A stretch of DNA of 12,502 nucleotides from a virus (IMGVR_UViG_2698536590_000008:1-12502); one strand, 5' to 3'. Shown: positions 5,593-12,502, numbered from the stretch's first letter. A program made the numbers and translations. The notes: generated by a model from the letters alone, not told the origin.

Positions 5593-7022
5593 TACTCAAT
5601 CCTTATCTGAGCACCAGACAGAGTGACAGGTGACTTCGTGATAACGCGCAATTTGAAGCCGACATTTTTCCTGATGCGCCCTACTCGCTTCCACAAAACG
5701 CGTTTGTCGTAAACGAACGGTTCATTCTGCTCAATCATCTGCTCACGCCCGTAATTTATGCCGTCAGTGGTTGCAGAGAGAAAAAGGCGGTCAGCATACT
5801 GCGCAACTCCAGTTGACGATTCAACTTCAAGGTCGAAAACTCTGGCGTTATCCGCTTTGAACAGAGGAGTAAACAGCAGATGTTCCTGTTGCTTGTCGTA
5901 CTGGCTGCTGATGTCGAATTGCAATTTCCCGGTCACCGATTCCAGTTTGTCGCCGCACGTTATCTGATTTCCTTCGTAAATGAAGTCGATAGCGCGGTAC
6001 ACATCGTCATACAGGCCTGTTTTCAACACACACCATTGCGGACCATTGGCGCTTGAAGATGCGTCGTACACGAGAACATGGCGCGGAAGGTGGATAATCA
6101 GCAACTCATGAGCATCAAATCGCAGCGATTCCATCACACCATCAGCCAGTTCATCAGCAGTGTAGGAGCGGAGGATTTTCTCAATGCTCGCGCTGGCGAT
6201 TGGTGACACCTGACCGGAGCCGATGATGTATACAGACGGCGCACCTGTTGCCGGATTGCTGATGAACGCATACGAGTCAGCAAACGGCGTTTTGCAGTAA
6301 GTCCCGGCAATGCCTTTCTGCACCATCAGCGATGGCTGTGCGACATACAGAGCAGCCCCAACAGTGGTTGCACCAGTCAGGGAGAAATATTCAATCGTCG
6401 ACGAACCAAAGCAGACTATGAAGTCTCGCCATGTACCTATGCCGATGATGCCGTCAGGCTGCGACTCTGCACGATATTGTGCGCTGTATCGGTCAGGATG
6501 CGATTCGTCTTCAAGGTCAGTGATAAACCATGAATCAGTTCCGTCTTTTGACCACGCATAACGCCCACGTAAGCGCGTAATGTCGCGAACCGAACCTAAC
6601 TCATACTGCGTAAATCCGCTGTCTGTAGGCCAGTTTGAGACGGTTTTAACCGTGCCATCATAGCGATACTCAACCAGTTGACCATTAACGCCTACAGCCT
6701 GAGATGTTCGACCATGCGCCATTGATACGCGACCACTTCCGGCGACGTCACCGACTTCGCTTTCGCCTTTGTAGAGCTTGCCGCCACACACACGATAGAC
6801 AGCATTCTGCGCCATGTTGTACTCGACGCCGCGCGATACACCGTTCACATCAGAGCGTTTGGCAATGCCCGGGAATGAGCGAAGATATCCGCTGCTGTTC
6901 AGGATTTCTTTGGGGGTTGCCAACATATTCACTGGCAGATAGTCGATATAGTCGGCGTTTCGAAAGTCTTTGCCGACACCTTTCATAAGCGGAAGTTGCT
7001 GAAGAGGAAGAGTGTAGAGCAA
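5592..7022 (-). CDS. Tail hub / head-completion protein, P22 gp10-like (476 aa)
   Basis: ORF track 476 aa; [40 protein letters not shown] and length match P22 gene 10 product as recalled. Start is TTG at 7022, the first start codon after the in-frame TAA at 7071-7073; the first ATG is at 6986-6984. Stop overlaps the needle gene start. Confidence 0.8.
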
Positions 7023-7042
7023 AGGATAAAGCTCACCGGAAA

Positions 7043-7162
7043 GAAGTAAATAACAAAATACTTGCTGACCTTATCAAGGTTGGCGCATCAGAAGATGTTG
7101 CTAAAAATATCATAACAGCCATCGTAAAAGGCGAAGTATTCGCAACAAAAATAACCTACTAA
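7043..7162 (+). pseudogene. Start-less C-terminal coding fragment (...NKILADLIKVGASEDVAKNIITAIVKGEVFATKITY*) upstream of cIII
   Basis: Plus-strand frame is open from 6989 to TAA at 7160-7162 with no ATG/GTG/TTG in frame; its 5' part overlaps the gp10 start region. Consistent with the 3' remnant of a gene truncated at a deletion or rearrangement junction. Left boundary approximate. Confidence 0.35.
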
Positions 7163-7186
7163 TAAAACCAACATAAGGAACCACCC

Positions 7187-7318
7187 ATGATTTACGCAAT
7201 CGCGGGAGGCGCTCGCATGGGTGCCTTCCAATTAAATGAATCTTTACTTGAACGAATCACCCGTAAATTACGTGACGGATGGAAAAGAGTTGAGGTCTTA
7301 TTATGCGCAATGAAATAG
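7187..7318 (+). CDS. cIII: CIII-like protein (43 aa)
   Basis: ATG at 7187 with AAGGA SD 7 nt upstream; translation MIYAIAGGARMGAFQLNESLLERITRKLRDGWKRVEVLLCAMK contains the ESLLERITRKLRDGWKR core I recall from lambda CIII; below the ORF-track size cutoff. Confidence 0.7.
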   Translation: MIYAIAGGARMGAFQLNESLLERITRKLRDGWKRVEVLLCAMK

Positions 7319-7455
7319 CCATCAATCACCAGATGCTTCGTGCTGCACAGAACAAAGCAGTAATAGCCCGATTTATTGGTGATTCAAAAATGTGGCTTGA
7401 AGCAAATAAAGCGATGAAATCAGCTATCAACCTTCCGTGGTATCGCAGGAAATGA
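7303..7455 (+). CDS. kil: Kil-like host division inhibitor (50 aa)
   Basis: ATG at 7303 with GAGG SD 6 nt upstream, overlapping the cIII 3' end; MRNEIAINHQMLRAAQNKAVIARFIGDSKMWLEANKAMKSAINLPWYRRK resembles the IATFIGDEKMF segment I recall from lambda Kil; position cIII-kil-recombinase matches the lambdoid PL operon. Confidence 0.55.
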   Translation: MRNEIAINHQMLRAAQNKAVIARFIGDSKMWLEANKAMKSAINLPWYRRK

Positions 7456-7530
7456 GTTTTACAGATAACTGGTCAGACGAAGAATTCATTCGTCAGATGA
7501 AAGAATTAATCGGTAACGAAGGAGATATTC

Positions 7531-7701
7531 ATGTCACTTGCAACCACAGTGAAGGAGAGCAAGTTACAGAGACGCATGTACACGCAGCAGGCGTTAATGT
7601 ATCGCCAGAAGGGAGATCGTGAAGGTGTTCGCGTATTTTTAAATGCGGCAAAGACTGAAGTATTAAATCAGCGTTATTTCCTTGGGCCATGTCCATTCTG
7701 A
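7531..7701 (+). CDS. Small early protein at the arf position between kil and erf (56 aa)
   Basis: ATG at 7531 preceded by a strong GAAGGAG SD at 6 nt spacing; ends 10 nt before the erf ATG. Competes with an overlapping alternative frame at 7452-7622 (see rejected list). Confidence 0.35.
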   Translation: MSLATTVKESKLQRRMYTQQALMYRQKGDREGVRVFLNAAKTEVLNQRYFLGPCPF

Positions 7702-7711
7702 GAACAAACAT

Positions 7712-8317
7712 ATGAGCAAAGAATTTTACGCAAGACTGGCAGCTATTCAGGAGAACTTGAACGCGCCAAAGAATCAGTACAACTCATTCGGCAAATATAA
7801 ATACAGAAGCTGCGAAGACATTCTTGAAGGCGTTAAGCCGTTACTGAATGGTCTGTTTTTATCAATCAGCGATGAAGTTGTGTTGATTGGTGATCGGTAT
7901 TACGTGAAAGCCACGGCAACTATTACCGATGGCGAAAACAGTCATACGGCAACCGCTCTTGCACGAGAGGAAGAAAGCAAGAAAGGAATGGATTCTGCAC
8001 AAGTTACGGGAGCTACAAGCTCTTATGCACGCAAGTATTGCCTCAATGGTTTGTTCGGCATTGATGATGCGAAAGATGCAGATACAGACGAGCATAAACA
8101 TCAGCAGAACGCAGCAGCAAAGCAATCAAAACCATCACCTACACCTGAACAGGTTCTAAAAGCATTCACTGACGCAGCAATGCAGAAAAACACCGTGGAA
8201 GAGCTTAAACAGGCGTTCGCCAAAGCGTGGAAGATGCTCGAAGGCACACCGGAGCAGCACAAAGCGCAGGACGTTTACAACATCAGACGAGACGAATTAG
8301 AAGGAGCGGCTGCTTAA
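7712..8317 (+). CDS. erf: Erf single-strand annealing recombinase (201 aa)
   Basis: ORF-track protein from internal ATG 7712: MSKEFYARLAAIQENLNAPKNQYNSFGKYKYRSCEDILEGVKPLL...ATITDGENSH...SSYARKYCLNGLFGIDDAKD matches P22 Erf as I recall it. The track's upstream extension (TTG 7682) is unlikely to be the start. Confidence 0.8.
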   Translation: MSKEFYARLAAIQENLNAPKNQYNSFGKYKYRSCEDILEGVKPLLNGLFLSISDEVVLIGDRYYVKATATITDGENSHTATALAREEESKKGMDSAQVTGATSSYARKYCLNGLFGIDDAKDADTDEHKHQQNAAAKQSKPSPTPEQVLKAFTDAAMQKNTVEELKQAFAKAWKMLEGTPEQHKAQDVYNIRRDELEGAAA

Positions 8318-8700
8318 TGGCACATTCGATTACTGTAAGACTAAACAAGCCCGCAAGAGAGTTTCAGGCCGGGGAAAATATCGGATTCAACATCCGTGCT
8401 GGCGTTCAGTATTACGATCGCCAGACAAAAAAGAAAGAATGGACAAACTACAGCGCCGTTGTATTTGCCAAGCCGGGAGCGCAAGCGGATTACTACCGTA
8501 GTGTTCTTGTTGAAGGTGGCATTGTGGAAATTACCGGAGAAAACATCAGGGTTGATGTTTATCAGGGGCAAAATGGTCAATCAATCACTCTTGAATTACT
8601 GAATGCAAAGATTGGATTTGCAACTTCAGGAAACAGCCAACAGCAGCAAAGTAGCAATCATCAAAATCATCCTGAATACGACGATTCAATCCCCTTCTAA
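8317..8700 (+). CDS. Single-stranded DNA-binding protein-like (127 aa)
   Basis: ATG at 8317 overlaps the erf stop (TAATG) with AAGGAG SD 10 nt upstream; OB-fold-like core (WTNYSAVVFAKPGAQADYYRSVLVEGGIVEITGENIRVDVYQGQNGQSITLEL), a Gln-rich linker and the acidic tip DDSIPF typical of bacterial SSB C-termini (compare DDDIPF). Confidence 0.65.
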   Translation: MAHSITVRLNKPAREFQAGENIGFNIRAGVQYYDRQTKKKEWTNYSAVVFAKPGAQADYYRSVLVEGGIVEITGENIRVDVYQGQNGQSITLELLNAKIGFATSGNSQQQQSSNHQNHPEYDDSIPF

Positions 8701-8723
8701 AGTAGCAACATAAGGATTCCATT

Positions 8724-9020
8724 ATGCCAGCGCCTCTGTATGGTGCGGATGACCCGCGCCGCTGTTCCGGCAATTCCGTATCGGAGGTGCTGGATAAATT
8801 CAGGAAAAACTACGATCGGATAATGTCGCTACCGCAGGAAACGAAAGAGGAAAAGGAATTTCGCCACTGTATATGGCTTGCAGAGAAAGAAGAACGAGAG
8901 CGAATTTACCAGACATCAATCCGACCATTCCGCAAAGCAACATATACCCACTTCCCTGAATATATCGACCCGCGCCTGCGTAATTACCGCTCACGCTATG
9001 GCGCTATCAGTAATGACTGA
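8724..9020 (+). CDS. Hypothetical early protein (98 aa); position and size comparable to P22 Abc2 anti-RecBCD, unconfirmed
   Basis: ORF track 98 aa; ATG at 8724 with AAGGA SD at 6 nt; directly downstream of the erf-ssb pair, where P22 carries its abc genes. I cannot recall Abc sequences well enough to confirm. Confidence 0.5.
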   Translation: MPAPLYGADDPRRCSGNSVSEVLDKFRKNYDRIMSLPQETKEEKEFRHCIWLAEKEERERIYQTSIRPFRKATYTHFPEYIDPRLRNYRSRYGAISND

Positions 9021-9030
9021 GGAATTAACA

Positions 9031-9321
9031 ATGAAAACAATGAAGCTAAACATCGACCTCGGAAAATACGTTATTACCGGAACAAAACACGATCTGATTC
9101 TTAGCGAAAGAGGAATTATCAAAGAAGGCGAGAATGCAGGGAAAGAAACACTAAGCCGTATCGGTTATTACAGCAAGTTTGAGCATCTGGTTAAAGAGTT
9201 ATGCAACCGTGAAATCCTGTTATCTCAGGCGCAGACGCTACAGGATATTCAGCAACATATCGAGACTTTAGGTGTGTCACTTAGCATGGCTATTGACCAG
9301 TTCGTGGAGAGTAAATCATGA
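9031..9321 (+). CDS. Hypothetical protein (96 aa)
   Basis: ATG at 9031 with GAGG SD 8 nt upstream; in frame with track ORF 8878-9321, whose 5' extension overlaps the preceding gene and is unlikely; product [22 protein letters not shown]... Confidence 0.5.
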
Positions 9322-9485
9322 GAGGGCTTGCATACAATCCCGGCATTCTTCCGGCAGAAATGATTATTCGCCAACGCGTAAAGCCAATGCCATCGAGAGA
9401 GGAATTGCTTAAGAGAAATTCTTTTCCATCAGTGAATCAAAACAAATATCTGAATGCGATGTGGCGCAAAGGAGGCAGCCAGTGA
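9318..9485 (+). CDS. Hypothetical small protein (55 aa)
   Basis: ATG at 9318 overlaps the previous stop (ATGA); product [55 protein letters not shown]; fills an otherwise unexplained 160-bp gap; below the ORF-track cutoff. Confidence 0.4.
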
Positions 9486-10126
9486 ATAACCGCTTTTACA
9501 TGATGTGCTTGCGTGAAACTGTGGGTAATAACGCTTCATTCCATTGCCATAACGGCAATGGTTACAGTTCTAATATCGATCGCGCTCATGTTTACACGCT
9601 GGAAGAAGCCCAAAAAGCCTGGAATTGTGGTCGAGATATCGATCAGCCTGTTTGCGCTGATAGCGTGGATGCAATGGCTGTGTGGCACGTTGATTGCCAG
9701 TACATCCCTACAGAAAACCTGATTGAGCCAGATTGCACTGCGTATGTGGCCTACAAAAAAGGTAGCTGGAACGGCAACGATGTTTACTGGCTTCAACACG
9801 GTGGATTGCCAACAGATGACTTCAGTAAAGCGACCATCTTTAGCGTCGCCAACAAAAACGAACCAGGAATAGTTTGGTTGCCATTTTCCATTGCTGATTC
9901 AGCAAAGCGCCGGACGTTCAATATCAATAACTTTAACCGCAGAACAATGGTTCAGGGCGCAGGTTTGGTCATGCCTGACTGGTTGAAAAAGCAGAACAGA
10001 AGAAAGAAGTCGCGAAGCGGGAAGGTGCGTTGGAATTGTCCGCATTGCGGAAAAATCACCTGGCAGCACAACCCATATGATTTTGAAGGCTGTAGTGATT
10101 ACAACTGTGAAGGATGGCGAGAATGA
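9482..10126 (+). CDS. Cys/His-rich protein with C-terminal zinc-ribbon motif (about 214 aa), unknown function
   Basis: Track ORF 9461-10126; preferred start GTG 9482 (AAGGAGG SD at 7 nt, overlapping the previous stop), or ATG 9500. C-terminus [44 protein letters not shown] has a basic patch plus CxxC...C....C; N-terminal half has several Cys/His. Confidence 0.55.
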
Positions 10127-10670
10127 CAATTGACTATCAGGCACTGCGTGAAAAAGCAGAAAAGCAACGTGTGGTGTATGGTCGCTCGAATATGGAGAGG
10201 AGAGATTTGATGGTGATGATGCACTAATTCATCGCGAGGCTGCTGGATATATTCCCATTTGCAGAATTGAAGGAGCGCATCCAGAAAGCGGTTTCGATGA
10301 AGATTTCCAAATGGAACAGCAGGCCAATGCTGAATTCATCGCCGCAGCCAATCCAGCTACCGTGCTGGCACTACTAGATGAAAGGGAAAGAAACCAGCAA
10401 TACATCAAACGCCGTGACCAGGAGAACGAGGATATTGCGCTAACGGTAGGGAAGTTGCGCGTTGAGCTTGAGGCAGAAAAACAGCGGGCAAAGGATCTGT
10501 TTATGGAAAATGCTCGGCTTAAGTCAGGTATAGCCGGTCTGATACACCTCGGTATTCGATATGCAGATGTTGAGGTCATGAAAATTGCTGGAGATGCCCA
10601 GCTTTCTACCCCATGCACTGACAGCATCATAAACAGCATTGCAACAGGCATTCGCATCAAAGGAGAGTGA
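10123..10670 (+). pseudogene. Ead/Ea22-like protein gene, apparently disrupted by a 1-nt frameshift
   Basis: ATG at 10123 (overlapping upstream stop) opens a 34-codon ORF ending at 10227; a second frame is open from 10152 to 10670 (track ORF 10311-10670). One added A in the A4 run at 10160-10163 joins them into a roughly 183-aa protein [20 protein letters not shown]...EFIAAANPATVLALLDERERNQ..., which resembles prophage Ead/Ea22-like proteins from memory. Confidence 0.45.
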
Positions 10671-10671
10671 T

Positions 10672-10935
10672 ATGGCAACTTTGACAAAAAAGGAACAGGC
10701 ATGGTTGAGCGAATTACAGAACGTTCTTGATCGCTGCCCGTCACCGAAAAAAATTGGTTTTTACACCATTGGCGATAAAAGCATTTACCTGTATGACCTA
10801 CGCCGCATGGATGAAATCATGGAGGCTCTTGATAATCGTTCGTCAATGGATTGGTGTGTTGCTGTCCATGATATGAATGCCGGATTTGAAGAAAAGATTT
10901 TGTTCCCCTCGTCAGTTGAAAGCACTGCGGGTTAA
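10672..10935 (+). CDS. Hypothetical protein (87 aa)
   Basis: ATG at 10672 with AGGAG SD at 6 nt; in frame with track ORF 10639-10935; product MATLTKKEQAWLSELQNVLDRCPSPKKIGFYTIGDKSIYLYDL... Confidence 0.5.
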   Translation: MATLTKKEQAWLSELQNVLDRCPSPKKIGFYTIGDKSIYLYDLRRMDEIMEALDNRSSMDWCVAVHDMNAGFEEKILFPSSVESTAG

Positions 10936-10945
10936 GGAGTAACAC

Positions 10946-11590
10946 ATGACCACTATTACCAAAGAACGTATTGAATTGTTCATTAAAAATCCGCTTGAAA
11001 ACGGACTTACCCGTGGCGAACAAATGGAACTGGCACGGATTGCACTGGCATCACTGAAACGCGAACAGATTCGCCACGAGCATGCCAAATGGTCTGACTC
11101 CACATTTGGCTGCGTTGGCCCCATTGGTCCACTGAAACACCTCTCAAAAGAGGCACTGGAAGCCGCAGCCGAACCAGACGATCTTAGCGAGTGGGCTGAT
11201 ATGCAGTTTCTGTTGTGGGATGCACAGCGCCGTGCTGGCATCAGCGATGCTGAAATTACCGCTGCTATGGAAGATAAATTGAAGATTAACATGGAGCGCC
11301 AGTGGCCTGAACCAAAAGATGGTGAGCCTCGCTTGCACATTAAAGAACCCGGCAACTCTCCGGTAACTCCGGATGGTTGGATAAGCTGTAGTGAGCGAAT
11401 GCCTGAAATTAGACAAACAGTTATTGGATGGAATGGATATGCAGTTAGACAATGCGTATATACAAGGAATGGATACGCCAAGACACAGAAAGGCAGAGAG
11501 CCAAGGTTTGAAACCTCAACTGGTATATGGCATGGAGTAACCCACTGGATGCCGCTACCAGAACCGCCGCAGGAGGTTAACCGCGGCTAA
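10946..11590 (+). CDS. DUF550/DUF551-type prophage protein (N-terminal dATP/dGTP pyrophosphohydrolase-like domain, C-terminal DUF551), 214 aa
   Basis: ORF track 214 aa; ATG with AGGAG SD at 6 nt; N-terminal region (HEHAKWSDSTFG...) resembles the MazG-like dNTP pyrophosphohydrolase domain common in enterobacterial prophages; C-terminus (PDGWISCSERMPE...GIWHGVTHWMPLPEPP) fits the DUF551 pattern. From recall. Confidence 0.6.
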   Translation: MTTITKERIELFIKNPLENGLTRGEQMELARIALASLKREQIRHEHAKWSDSTFGCVGPIGPLKHLSKEALEAAAEPDDLSEWADMQFLLWDAQRRAGISDAEITAAMEDKLKINMERQWPEPKDGEPRLHIKEPGNSPVTPDGWISCSERMPEIRQTVIGWNGYAVRQCVYTRNGYAKTQKGREPRFETSTGIWHGVTHWMPLPEPPQEVNRG

Positions 11591-11690
11591 CCTGCAACTT
11601 GCCGTCAAAGGTGAATAACAATCCTCGCACTCGCGGGGATTTCTTTTATCTGAACTCGCTACGGCGGGTTTTGTTTTATGGAGATGATAA

Positions 11691-11825
11691 ATGCACTTCC
11701 GAGTCACAGGTGAATGGAATGGAGAACCATTCAACAGGGTTATCGAAGCAGAGGACATCAACGACTGCTATAACCACTGGATGATATGGGCGCAGATAGC
11801 GCATGCAGACGTAACAAATATTTGA
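11691..11825 (+). CDS. Hypothetical small protein (44 aa)
   Basis: ATG at 11691 with GGAG SD at 7 nt; MHFRVTGEWNGEPFNRVIEAEDINDCYNHWMIWAQIAHADVTNI; followed 22 nt later by a strong hairpin terminator. Preferred over the TTG-initiated overlapping track ORF 11599-11784, which has no SD. Confidence 0.4.
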   Translation: MHFRVTGEWNGEPFNRVIEAEDINDCYNHWMIWAQIAHADVTNI

Positions 11826-11847
11826 TTTGAAGAACTGAAAGAACACC

Positions 11848-11872
11848 AAGCCGCCTGATGGCGGTTTTTTAT
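11848..11872 (+). terminator. Rho-independent terminator-like hairpin with U-tract
   Basis: AAGCCGCC (11848-11855), loop TGAT, GGCGGTTT (11860-11867) gives an 8-bp stem including one G-U pair, followed by a T6 run (11865-11870). Confidence 0.55.
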
Positions 11873-11884
11873 TGGAGACAAGAA

Positions 11885-12229
11885 ATGTCAGATTTGGCTA
11901 TGAAGGTTTTGAAATGGCAATCAACTGGCGATGTTGGCATCAGTAGCGCAACTCTTGCCTCAATCGCATGTGTACTGAAAAAGAATATCTATGGTCATCA
12001 CTTCGGCGCTCCCCATGACGCAGCCGATTTCAGACGATGCGTTGCACTTGTTGAGCAGATTCCAGAAATCAGAGATTCATTCAACAAGGTTGCAAAGCGC
12101 GTTCCGGCATTCAAAGGCATCCTCAACGAATGGGATTCTCTCGTTGCTCTGTTGAAGTCTGAAATGAAGATACACGGAAACAAAGCACCAGAGACTTACA
12201 AAAGAATCAGCGAGCTACGCAAGGACTAA
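11885..12229 (+). CDS. Hypothetical protein (114 aa), orphan gene bracketed by two hairpin terminators
   Basis: In frame with track ORF 11858-12229, but ATG 11858 lies inside the terminator loop; preferred start ATG 11885 with GGAGA SD at 6 nt. Product MSDLAMKVLKWQSTGDVGISSATLASIACVLKKNIYGHHFGAPHDAADFRRCVALVEQ...; no family recognised. Confidence 0.5.
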   Translation: MSDLAMKVLKWQSTGDVGISSATLASIACVLKKNIYGHHFGAPHDAADFRRCVALVEQIPEIRDSFNKVAKRVPAFKGILNEWDSLVALLKSEMKIHGNKAPETYKRISELRKD

Positions 12230-12269
12230 CCACAGTCTCACACTCGATGAGGCCTGTTCATATCTGATA

Positions 12270-12296
12270 GAGCCGCTATATGGCGGTTTATTTTTG
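12270..12296 (+). terminator. Terminator-like hairpin with U-rich tail, related in sequence to the 11848 hairpin
   Basis: AGCCGC (12271-12276), loop TATATG, GCGGTT (12283-12288) gives a 6-bp stem including a G-U pair, followed by TATTTTT; lies 40 nt after the stop of the 114-aa gene and 15 nt before the xis SD. Confidence 0.4.
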
Positions 12297-12310
12297 CCTG
12301 GAGAATTAAG

Positions 12311-12502
12311 ATGACCGATACCAGCCTGATTCCTGAGAAAGAAGTGATGAACAAGCTCGGTGTTTCATCACGTCAGACAATCTGGAACTATACCAAACGG
12401 CACGGATTTCCGAAGCCAGTCAGAACCCACCCCAAATCATACCTTCGTGAAGCTGTTGAAGGGTGGATTCTTAACGGTGGCGTTAATCAGAAATGCTCCT
12501 GA
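12311..12502 (+). CDS. xis: Excisionase / AlpA-family DNA-binding protein (63 aa)
   Basis: ORF track 63 aa; ATG with GGAGA SD at 6 nt; EKEVMNKLGVSSRQTIWNYTKRHGFPKPVRTHPKSYLREAVEGWI matches the AlpA/Xis HTH pattern (S..TIW.....G.FPKP.......W...E...WI); position at the distal end of the early-left arm, where xis precedes int. Confidence 0.6.
   Translation: MTDTSLIPEKEVMNKLGVSSRQTIWNYTKRHGFPKPVRTHPKSYLREAVEGWILNGGVNQKCS

Follow-up and report, generated by a model that had tools for sequence, protein, structure and literature searches.

Four hairpins in the intergenic gaps of a lambdoid pL operon, two of which bracket a gene for a 114-aa protein, are best read as Rho-independent terminators that N- or put-dependent antitermination would override, with the same elements doubling as mosaic seams. 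Based on sequence comparisons, we assign this reading a probability of roughly 0.8. The 114-aa module and its look-alike hairpins clearly exemplify a pattern that is already known, rather than a new mechanism. The "window" referred to below is the whole stretch of viral DNA that was analyzed (12,502 nucleotides), and all coordinates are counted from its first nucleotide.

According to this reading, each predicted terminator sits in an intergenic gap, with the SD sequence and start codon of the downstream gene immediately after it. The hairpins would halt RNA polymerase in its unmodified form, whereas polymerase coming from pL would read through them once modified by N/nut or, in HK022, by put RNA. 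On this view, orf55, the 114-aa gene, and xis would lack individual promoters and be made only within the antiterminated early transcript. Furthermore, the 422 bp between two copies of a 10-nt repeat are found in some phages and are precisely missing from others. Termination at these sites, its override by antitermination, and the nature of the enzyme that performs the crossover are features that we infer from sequence.

Operon context and condition of this copy

The plus strand from ~7000 to 12502 corresponds to the distal part of a P22-like/lambdoid early-left (pL) operon, at its exo-xis end. Its genes are ordered cIII, kil, erf, an ssb-like gene, abc2, an Ea22-like gene, a dATP/dGTP pyrophosphohydrolase-DUF551 gene, a small gene (orf55), the 114-aa gene, and xis, and this content agrees with that of the pL operons of HK022, mEp234, and Stx phages. 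The ~1.1 kb surrounding positions 11826-12310 matched 453 phage records with 90-99% identity, including those of HK022, mEp234, E212, and many Stx phages.

Lambda and HK022 have pL with nut or put upstream. Terminators precede the early genes of lambdoid phages, whose expression requires N/nut or put, and put acts over a range of at least 10 kb (PMC9378689). The window resembles such antiterminated early operons in that several predicted terminators are internal to one long operon, and our scan of 11400-12502 found no promoters for its distal genes. It differs from the early operons of lambda and HK022 in having lost pL, nutL, and N. All three are absent from the whole window, and this copy thus lacks the upstream arrangement of an antitermination operon (pL, a nut or put site, and N). 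Antiterminated read-through therefore cannot operate in this copy. A sequence-only reading of this DNA had proposed antiterminated read-through as the means of expressing the 114-aa gene. This proposal agrees with the operon type seen in lambda and HK022 and with the lack of a promoter belonging to the gene, but it does not hold for the copy at hand.

Relative to phage Sf101, ~21 kb are absent at a joint near position 7001, including N, nutL, pL, and the immunity, replication, lysis, and head genes. At this joint (6990-7030), the start of the gp10 tail gene on the minus strand meets the interior of an Sf6-gene-33-like gene that lies upstream of cIII on the plus strand. No complete E. coli genome was found that spans the joint, which stems either from a defective prophage or from sequence assembly. 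The operon in this window is probably silent and decaying, after a large deletion that removed pL, nutL, and N. More generally, the window looks like a decaying prophage because the ~21-kb loss is joined by a nonsense codon in orf55 and by an internal deletion in the homolog of HK022 gp34. For this reason, the mechanism proposed above would be ancestral in this copy and is probably not operating.

The orf55 nonsense codon (11823-11825) changes R45 to a stop (CGA to TGA) and is accompanied by a neighboring A-to-T change. Upon alignment with lambdap35, 52 of 54 sense codons are identical, and the 55th position compared is a stop. The ancestral TGA stop codon (11856-11858) falls in the loop of hairpin H3. 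Lambda Orf55 itself has been confirmed by ribosome profiling (PMC8614690).

The remnant of the HK022 gp34 homolog occupies 11591-11619. Its first ~35 nt are joined to its last few bases at the short repeat TGAATA, its start codon has changed from GTG to GCG, and the identical deleted form is present in several viral contigs. Elsewhere in the window, the scarcity of long ORFs in 1-2289 was first taken as a sign of gene decay, but this region is actually occupied by the gp16 gene, which runs off the left end of the window.

Architecture of the hairpin cassettes

Features of the segment are listed in Table 1. From the sequence alone, it had been claimed that two cassettes of the same build (hairpin, T-run, GGAGA, 6 nt, ATG) bracket the 114-aa gene, and both the coordinates and the sequence of these cassettes, herein called H3 and H4, were borne out. 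In register, the two agree at 18 of 23 positions. They also have an exact 10-nt repeat in common (ATGGCGGTTT), whose copies at 11858-11867 and 12280-12289 are 422 bp apart. A shared run of this length was reached in just 5 of 5,000 shuffles.

Table 1. Coordinates of features in the distal portion of the pL operon
Feature	Coordinates	Strand	Description
tL4 hairpin	11620-11650 (stem-loop 11620-11641)	+	AATCCTCGC-ACTC-GCGGGGATT plus TCTTTTAT; HK022 tL4, lambda t3
H2 cassette	11652-11693	+	GAACTCGC-TACG-GCGGGTTT, T-run, GGAGA 11680-11684, 6 nt, ATG 11691; lambda t4
orf55	11691-11858 (truncated frame 11691-11825)	+	Lambda Orf55 homolog, phrog_676; 52 of 54 sense codons identical to lambdap35
H3 cassette	11848-11887	+	Hairpin AAGCCGCC-TGAT-GGCGGTTT 11848-11867, T-run, GGAGA 11874-11878, CAAGAA, ATG 11885
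Presence/absence module (422 bp)	11868-12289	+	114-aa gene with SD, xis relic, and one copy of the 10-nt repeat
114-aa gene	11885-12229	+	HK022 gp32 family, phrog_1229
xis relic	12231-12265	+	Non-coding remnant of a P22-type excisionase gene (N-terminal part), ..SLTLDEAC..
H4 cassette	12270-12313	+	Hairpin GAGCCGCT-ATAT-GGCGGTTT 12270-12289, T-run, GGAGA 12300-12304, ATTAAG, xis ATG 12311
xis	12311-12502	+	AlpA-type excisionase-like protein, 63 aa, phrog_66 (excisionase); last gene of the operon

When folded in isolation, H3 and H4 have predicted energies of -12.4 and -9.8 kcal/mol, respectively. H3 also folds better than shuffled sequences when placed in its 51-nt context (z = -3.2; 1 of 200 shuffles), whereas H4 in a 54-nt context does not stand out from shuffled sequence (z = -1.3; 14 of 200 shuffles). 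Both are terminator-like on the plus strand only. Folding of the reverse strands is weak, and T-runs are missing there. We also considered whether an extended H3 fold, through CCAA:UUGG pairing that touches the SD sequence, could sequester the latter. This candidate was rejected upon finding that the fold is not kept in hybrid cassettes.

Two more hairpins, tL4 and H2, are arranged in tandem at 11620-11671 and had been missed by the sequence-only reading. The tL4 hairpin (9-bp stem, -12.5 kcal/mol) is the top terminator-like match in our scan, and the HK022 int-xis record (X51962) carries the label "tL4 terminator" exactly at the aligned position of this first hairpin. H2 (8-bp stem, 4-nt loop, -10.5 kcal/mol) fronts orf55, and its kinship with H3 and H4 is one of architecture only, given that the longest common run of 6 nt is not beyond chance. 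The pattern GGCGGKTT-N4-14-GGAGA-N5-7-ATG, a composite defined after the fact, occurs three times in the window (H2, H3, and H4) and in none of 200 shuffles.

Evidence for the hairpins as probable intrinsic terminators

All four hairpins have the sequence properties expected of intrinsic terminators. Their stems comprise 8-9 bp with 4-5 G-C pairs, their loops are 4 nt long, and their predicted energies range from -9.8 to -12.5 kcal/mol. Each stem is followed on the plus strand by at least 5 T residues within 8 nt. These four plus-strand sites fall within 670 bp, are all intergenic, and are the best-scoring terminator-like sites of the window.

Lambda carries the first three hairpins (tL4, H2, and H3) nearly base for base and in the same order around orf55 (lambdap35). 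The exo-xis hairpins of lambda are listed as the predicted Rho-independent terminators t3, t4, and t5 (Bloch et al. 2014, Table 4; PMC4195576), and they were called by two independent terminator predictors, including ARNold. Because t3-t5 are the counterparts of tL4, H2, and H3, these hairpins are already present in the literature as predictions. The window thus matches the lambda t3-t5 and HK022 tL4 (X51962) arrangement in the order tL4/t3, H2/t4, H3/t5, with orf55 between t4 and t5. The lambda t3-t5 and HK022 tL4 labels are themselves sequence predictions. Our literature search for Term-seq, 3'-end, or in vitro termination results at these hairpins found none, and a search for literature on tL3/tL4 yielded nothing usable.

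Hairpins of unrelated sequence can replace one another at these locations. Depending on the phage, one of four unrelated stable hairpins stands before the T-run/SD tail of H4. Likewise, the H3 tail (TTTTTATTGGAGA) follows H3 in E. coli phages and follows either ACCCGC-TTCG-GCGGGT or ACCCGC-CGAGC-GCGGGT in Cronobacter. These replaced hairpins preserve structure despite sequence change, as expected for intrinsic terminators. The occurrence of unrelated hairpins before a conserved T-run and SD sequence argues for selection on RNA structure rather than on a DNA homology patch. Covariation within individual hairpins is slight because most copies are nearly identical.

Gain and loss of the 114-aa module

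To describe the distribution of the 114-aa module, we used 80 viral contigs that carry the same xis as the window. The window-like arrangement (114-aa gene, short spacer, H4) is present in 35 of these contigs. Another 36 have the H3 hairpin fused straight to the T-run/SD tail of H4 (GCCGCCTGATGGCGGTTTCTTTTTGCCTGGAGAATTAAGATG); these hybrids include 27 with a full orf55 and 9 in which a different upstream gene is fused to the orf55 3' end. In the remaining 9 contigs, the spacer and H4 come after another gene. Because the H3 hairpin is fused directly to the H4 tail in 36 contigs, we conclude that the 114-aa gene resides on a 422-bp indel whose crossover lies in the 10-nt repeat. A comparison with related phages had been suggested as a way to learn whether the gene is an insertion between conserved flanks, and this proved to be the case, with the joint located inside the shared hairpin sequence.

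Similar exchanges are apparent on either side of the module. In lambda, which lacks the 114-aa gene, the H3 hairpin (t5) is joined directly to a lambda-type xis leader with TTGC-N6-TTGC, and the crossover is in GCGG-TTTTT. The window differs in having the 114-aa gene, the xis relic, and H4 between H3 and an AlpA-type xis. HK022 has the 114-aa gene, followed by a different hairpin (GCCGCATCAATGCGGC) before a lambda-type xis leader. Upstream, orf55 is absent from ~32 of 87 loci, and these carry a hybrid of the H2 hairpin and the H3 spacer (..TTTTATGGAGA joined to CAAGAAATG) with the crossover in TGGAGA. The tL4 hairpin has at least five different upstream neighbors among the loci examined, always with the junction TAA/CAATCC, and at least three different genes follow the H2 GGAGA in relatives among these loci. 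Downstream of the 114-aa gene, at least five module types are found. Overall, at least nine gene families lie directly behind hairpin/T-run/SD cassettes in these loci, and alignment end-points cluster at 11610-20, 11690, 11860, and 12260.

In other words, one short intergenic sequence is joined to different genes, and hybrid crossovers fall inside shared sequence, as expected for module boundaries. Our best reading of these comparisons is that the hairpin cassettes would also act as module-boundary joints, and that the small upstream gene and the xis types are exchanged likewise at adjacent cassettes. Short conserved boundary (linker) sequences between lambdoid modules have been discussed before (Susskind and Botstein 1978; Clark et al. 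2001, both as cited in PMC3029335). As in that model, conserved intergenic pieces in the window are joined to different genes and hybrid crossovers occur inside them; the difference is that the boundary here is identifiable as a predicted terminator hairpin with a T-run and SD sequence.

A more ambitious proposal is that the exo-xis terminator hairpins may work as a cassette-exchange system. The premise is that similar GC-stem/T-run/GGAGA linkers terminate all of the unrelated promoterless genes, so that the annealing protein encoded by the phage (Erf or Red-beta) could use 6-10-nt homologies to insert, delete, or swap whole genes while the operon remains unbroken. If true, selection for evolvability, in addition to that for termination, would maintain the linkers. 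We offer this proposal tentatively and lean against it. The position of breakpoints alone is no proof that the hairpins attract recombination, because selection against broken genes also leaves joints at gene boundaries.

One unusual neighbor was observed in phage Stx2a_WGPS6, where a 1.7-kb insertion (745-2490 of our locus L005) with two genes annotated as anti-repressors is located directly after the H2 stem. The insertion includes a long intergenic stretch with hairpins of its own and ends in a hairpin/T-run/SD cassette (AAAGGAGCTTCGGCTCCTTTTTTT). This two-gene insertion could be a genuine moron that carries its own promoter.

Properties of the 114-aa gene and its product

The 114-aa gene had been described as an orphan. 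This label does not apply because the gene is widespread: it corresponds to HK022_32 (annotated "N15 early protein homolog") and phrog_1229, and is present in hundreds of enterobacterial phages. The counterpart of the adjacent small gene is HK022_33. Homologs of the 114-aa protein were found in enterobacterial prophages only, and full-length members have at least 58% identity. Searches of Pfam, NCBIfam, PADLOC, and PDB sequences gave no match. Structure prediction produced a confident all-helical model (pLDDT 93) that matched no solved fold, and its matches were uncharacterized phage proteins only. Homology and structure searches, which had been recommended as a check, placed the protein in the phrog_1229 family and linked its model to uncharacterized phage proteins.

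We found no sigma-70-like promoter in a scan of 11400-12502. Only 17 nt separate the H3 hairpin from the ATG of the 114-aa gene, in agreement with the earlier claim that there is no room for a promoter after the first hairpin. The GC content is 0.43-0.51 across the gene and its flanks, and no compositional contrast is evident.

Several database proteins (P0015, P0018, P0029, P0036, P0049, P0052, and P0053) have part of the 114-aa protein fused to Erf, Kil, Ea22, or dATP/dGTP-pyrophosphohydrolase domains. These fusions indicate many independent deletions from upstream pL-operon genes into the 114-aa gene.

Alternative explanations and implications

If the hairpins were mainly DNA-level linkers that guide recombination between phage modules, their resemblance to terminators would be secondary. 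We judge this to be improbable, although several observations would suit it: crossovers lie within shared sequence (the 10-nt repeat for the 114-aa module, TGGAGA for orf55, and GCGG-TTTTT for lambda), one linker is joined to many different genes, the operon encodes the Erf annealing protein, Rad52-like recombinases recombine short, diverged sequences (PMC3945230), and PMC3029335 cites the idea of boundary sequences. However, the presence of unrelated hairpins at the same position before a conserved T-run and SD sequence points to selection on RNA structure, and the T-runs are confined to the transcribed strand. Moreover, 5-10-nt microhomologies are a typical feature, too, of illegitimate joins whose survival is due to the genes staying intact. 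A less probable alternative is that the hairpins are mRNA stability or processing elements (3' protective stem-loops), with the U-tract as a translation enhancer, and are not working terminators. Each hairpin is indeed 8-17 nt before an SD sequence with a U-rich tract between them, U-rich leaders bind ribosomal protein S1, and the hairpins would remain in the message under full antitermination. Yet the hairpins have all the sequence features of intrinsic terminators, two predictors call them in lambda, and the tL4/H2 tandem (11620-11671) suits a tight stop more than stabilization.

The sequence-only reading had also likened the 114-aa gene to a moron, which is an autonomous promoter-gene-terminator unit that is expressed from a repressed prophage. 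Like a moron, the gene is an optional presence between two genes that adjoin each other in relatives (orf55 is next to xis in lambda and in 27 same-xis contigs), and a hairpin follows it. Unlike morons, it has neither a promoter-like site, nor the room for one in 17 nt, nor a base composition that sets it apart from its neighbors, and the downstream hairpin belongs to the xis module because H4 is also present without the 114-aa gene. We consequently think it very unlikely that the gene is a moron. Retroregulation of the kind known for lambda sib/tI had been raised as well, whereby RNase III would cleave read-through RNA at the hairpins and the neighboring message would decay. The resemblance is a general one, namely a hairpin in the int-xis neighborhood with an effect that depends on read-through, and we give this idea almost no credence. 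The lambda sib site lies beyond attP and is a long RNase III substrate, whereas the window hairpins, with 8-bp stems and 4-nt loops, are far shorter and occur upstream of genes inside the operon rather than past the end of a regulated message. In addition, the true sib site of HK022 is annotated elsewhere, beyond attP, and an Rfam scan of 11500-12502 with E values up to 1 returned two chance-level hits only and no match to a known element.

With the hairpins read as terminators subject to antitermination and as mosaic seams, the locus provides a base-level example of a promoterless accessory gene in a lambdoid early operon that is bounded by predicted terminator/ribosome-binding-site linkers. 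Gain and loss of the 114-aa gene across dozens of phages, including Shiga-toxin phages, map to a 10-nt repeat in the 3' arms of two hairpins. The module bears on, but does not settle, a long-running debate on the origin of phage mosaicism, in which recombination at short homologies is set against random joining with subsequent selection (PMC3945230). Annotation of this region also benefits: the terminator-flanked appearance of the 114-aa gene is explained, the 35 nt after it are recognized as a dead excisionase fragment, and the operon promoter is seen to be lost here.

The xis relic and the terminal xis gene

The relic that follows the 114-aa gene retains ..SLTLDEACSYL.. without a start codon and is kept in almost all loci. 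It travels with the 114-aa gene, and two contigs (L142 and L149) retain its SD sequence and ATG. Cronobacter prophages have an intact gene (MEQYSLTLDEACAMLGISRPT..) at the place of the relic, which matches HTH_17 (E = 2e-9) and overlaps int. The Cronobacter ortholog of the 114-aa protein is 79% identical and ends in ..DAA; its stop codon is within a hairpin (GCCGCCTGATGGCGGC) that is followed by a T-run, GGAGA, and the intact MEQYSLTLDEACAMLGISRPT.. gene. We had entertained the possibility that 12231-12265 is a structured RNA (GCCTCA..TGAGGC, with an invariant stem and a variable loop), but this was rejected when the Cronobacter loci revealed the coding sequence SLTLDEAC of a P22-type xis.

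Domain matches of the terminal xis product are to Phage_AlpA (E = 0.003) and HTH_17 (E = 0.008), both of which are below the Pfam cut-offs. In relatives, the RefSeq name is "AlpA family regulatory protein," and a convergent integrase gene on the opposite strand overlaps the 3' end of xis.

Where a lambda-type xis is present, the leader after the hairpin (TTGCGTGTAATTGC) includes TTGC-N6-TTGC, as found in HK022 (L002, 4990-5042) and in lambda (L088, 1580-1615, minus strand). This is presumably the motif to which cII binds at the pI promoter, and its presence would account for the longer distance between hairpin and SD sequence in these leaders. Finally, most prophage contigs in IMG/VR with the same xis (L097-L176) stop exactly 3 nt past the xis stop codon, as does the window, which suggests that prophage boundaries are systematically called at the xis/int overlap and that this end is not a biological one.
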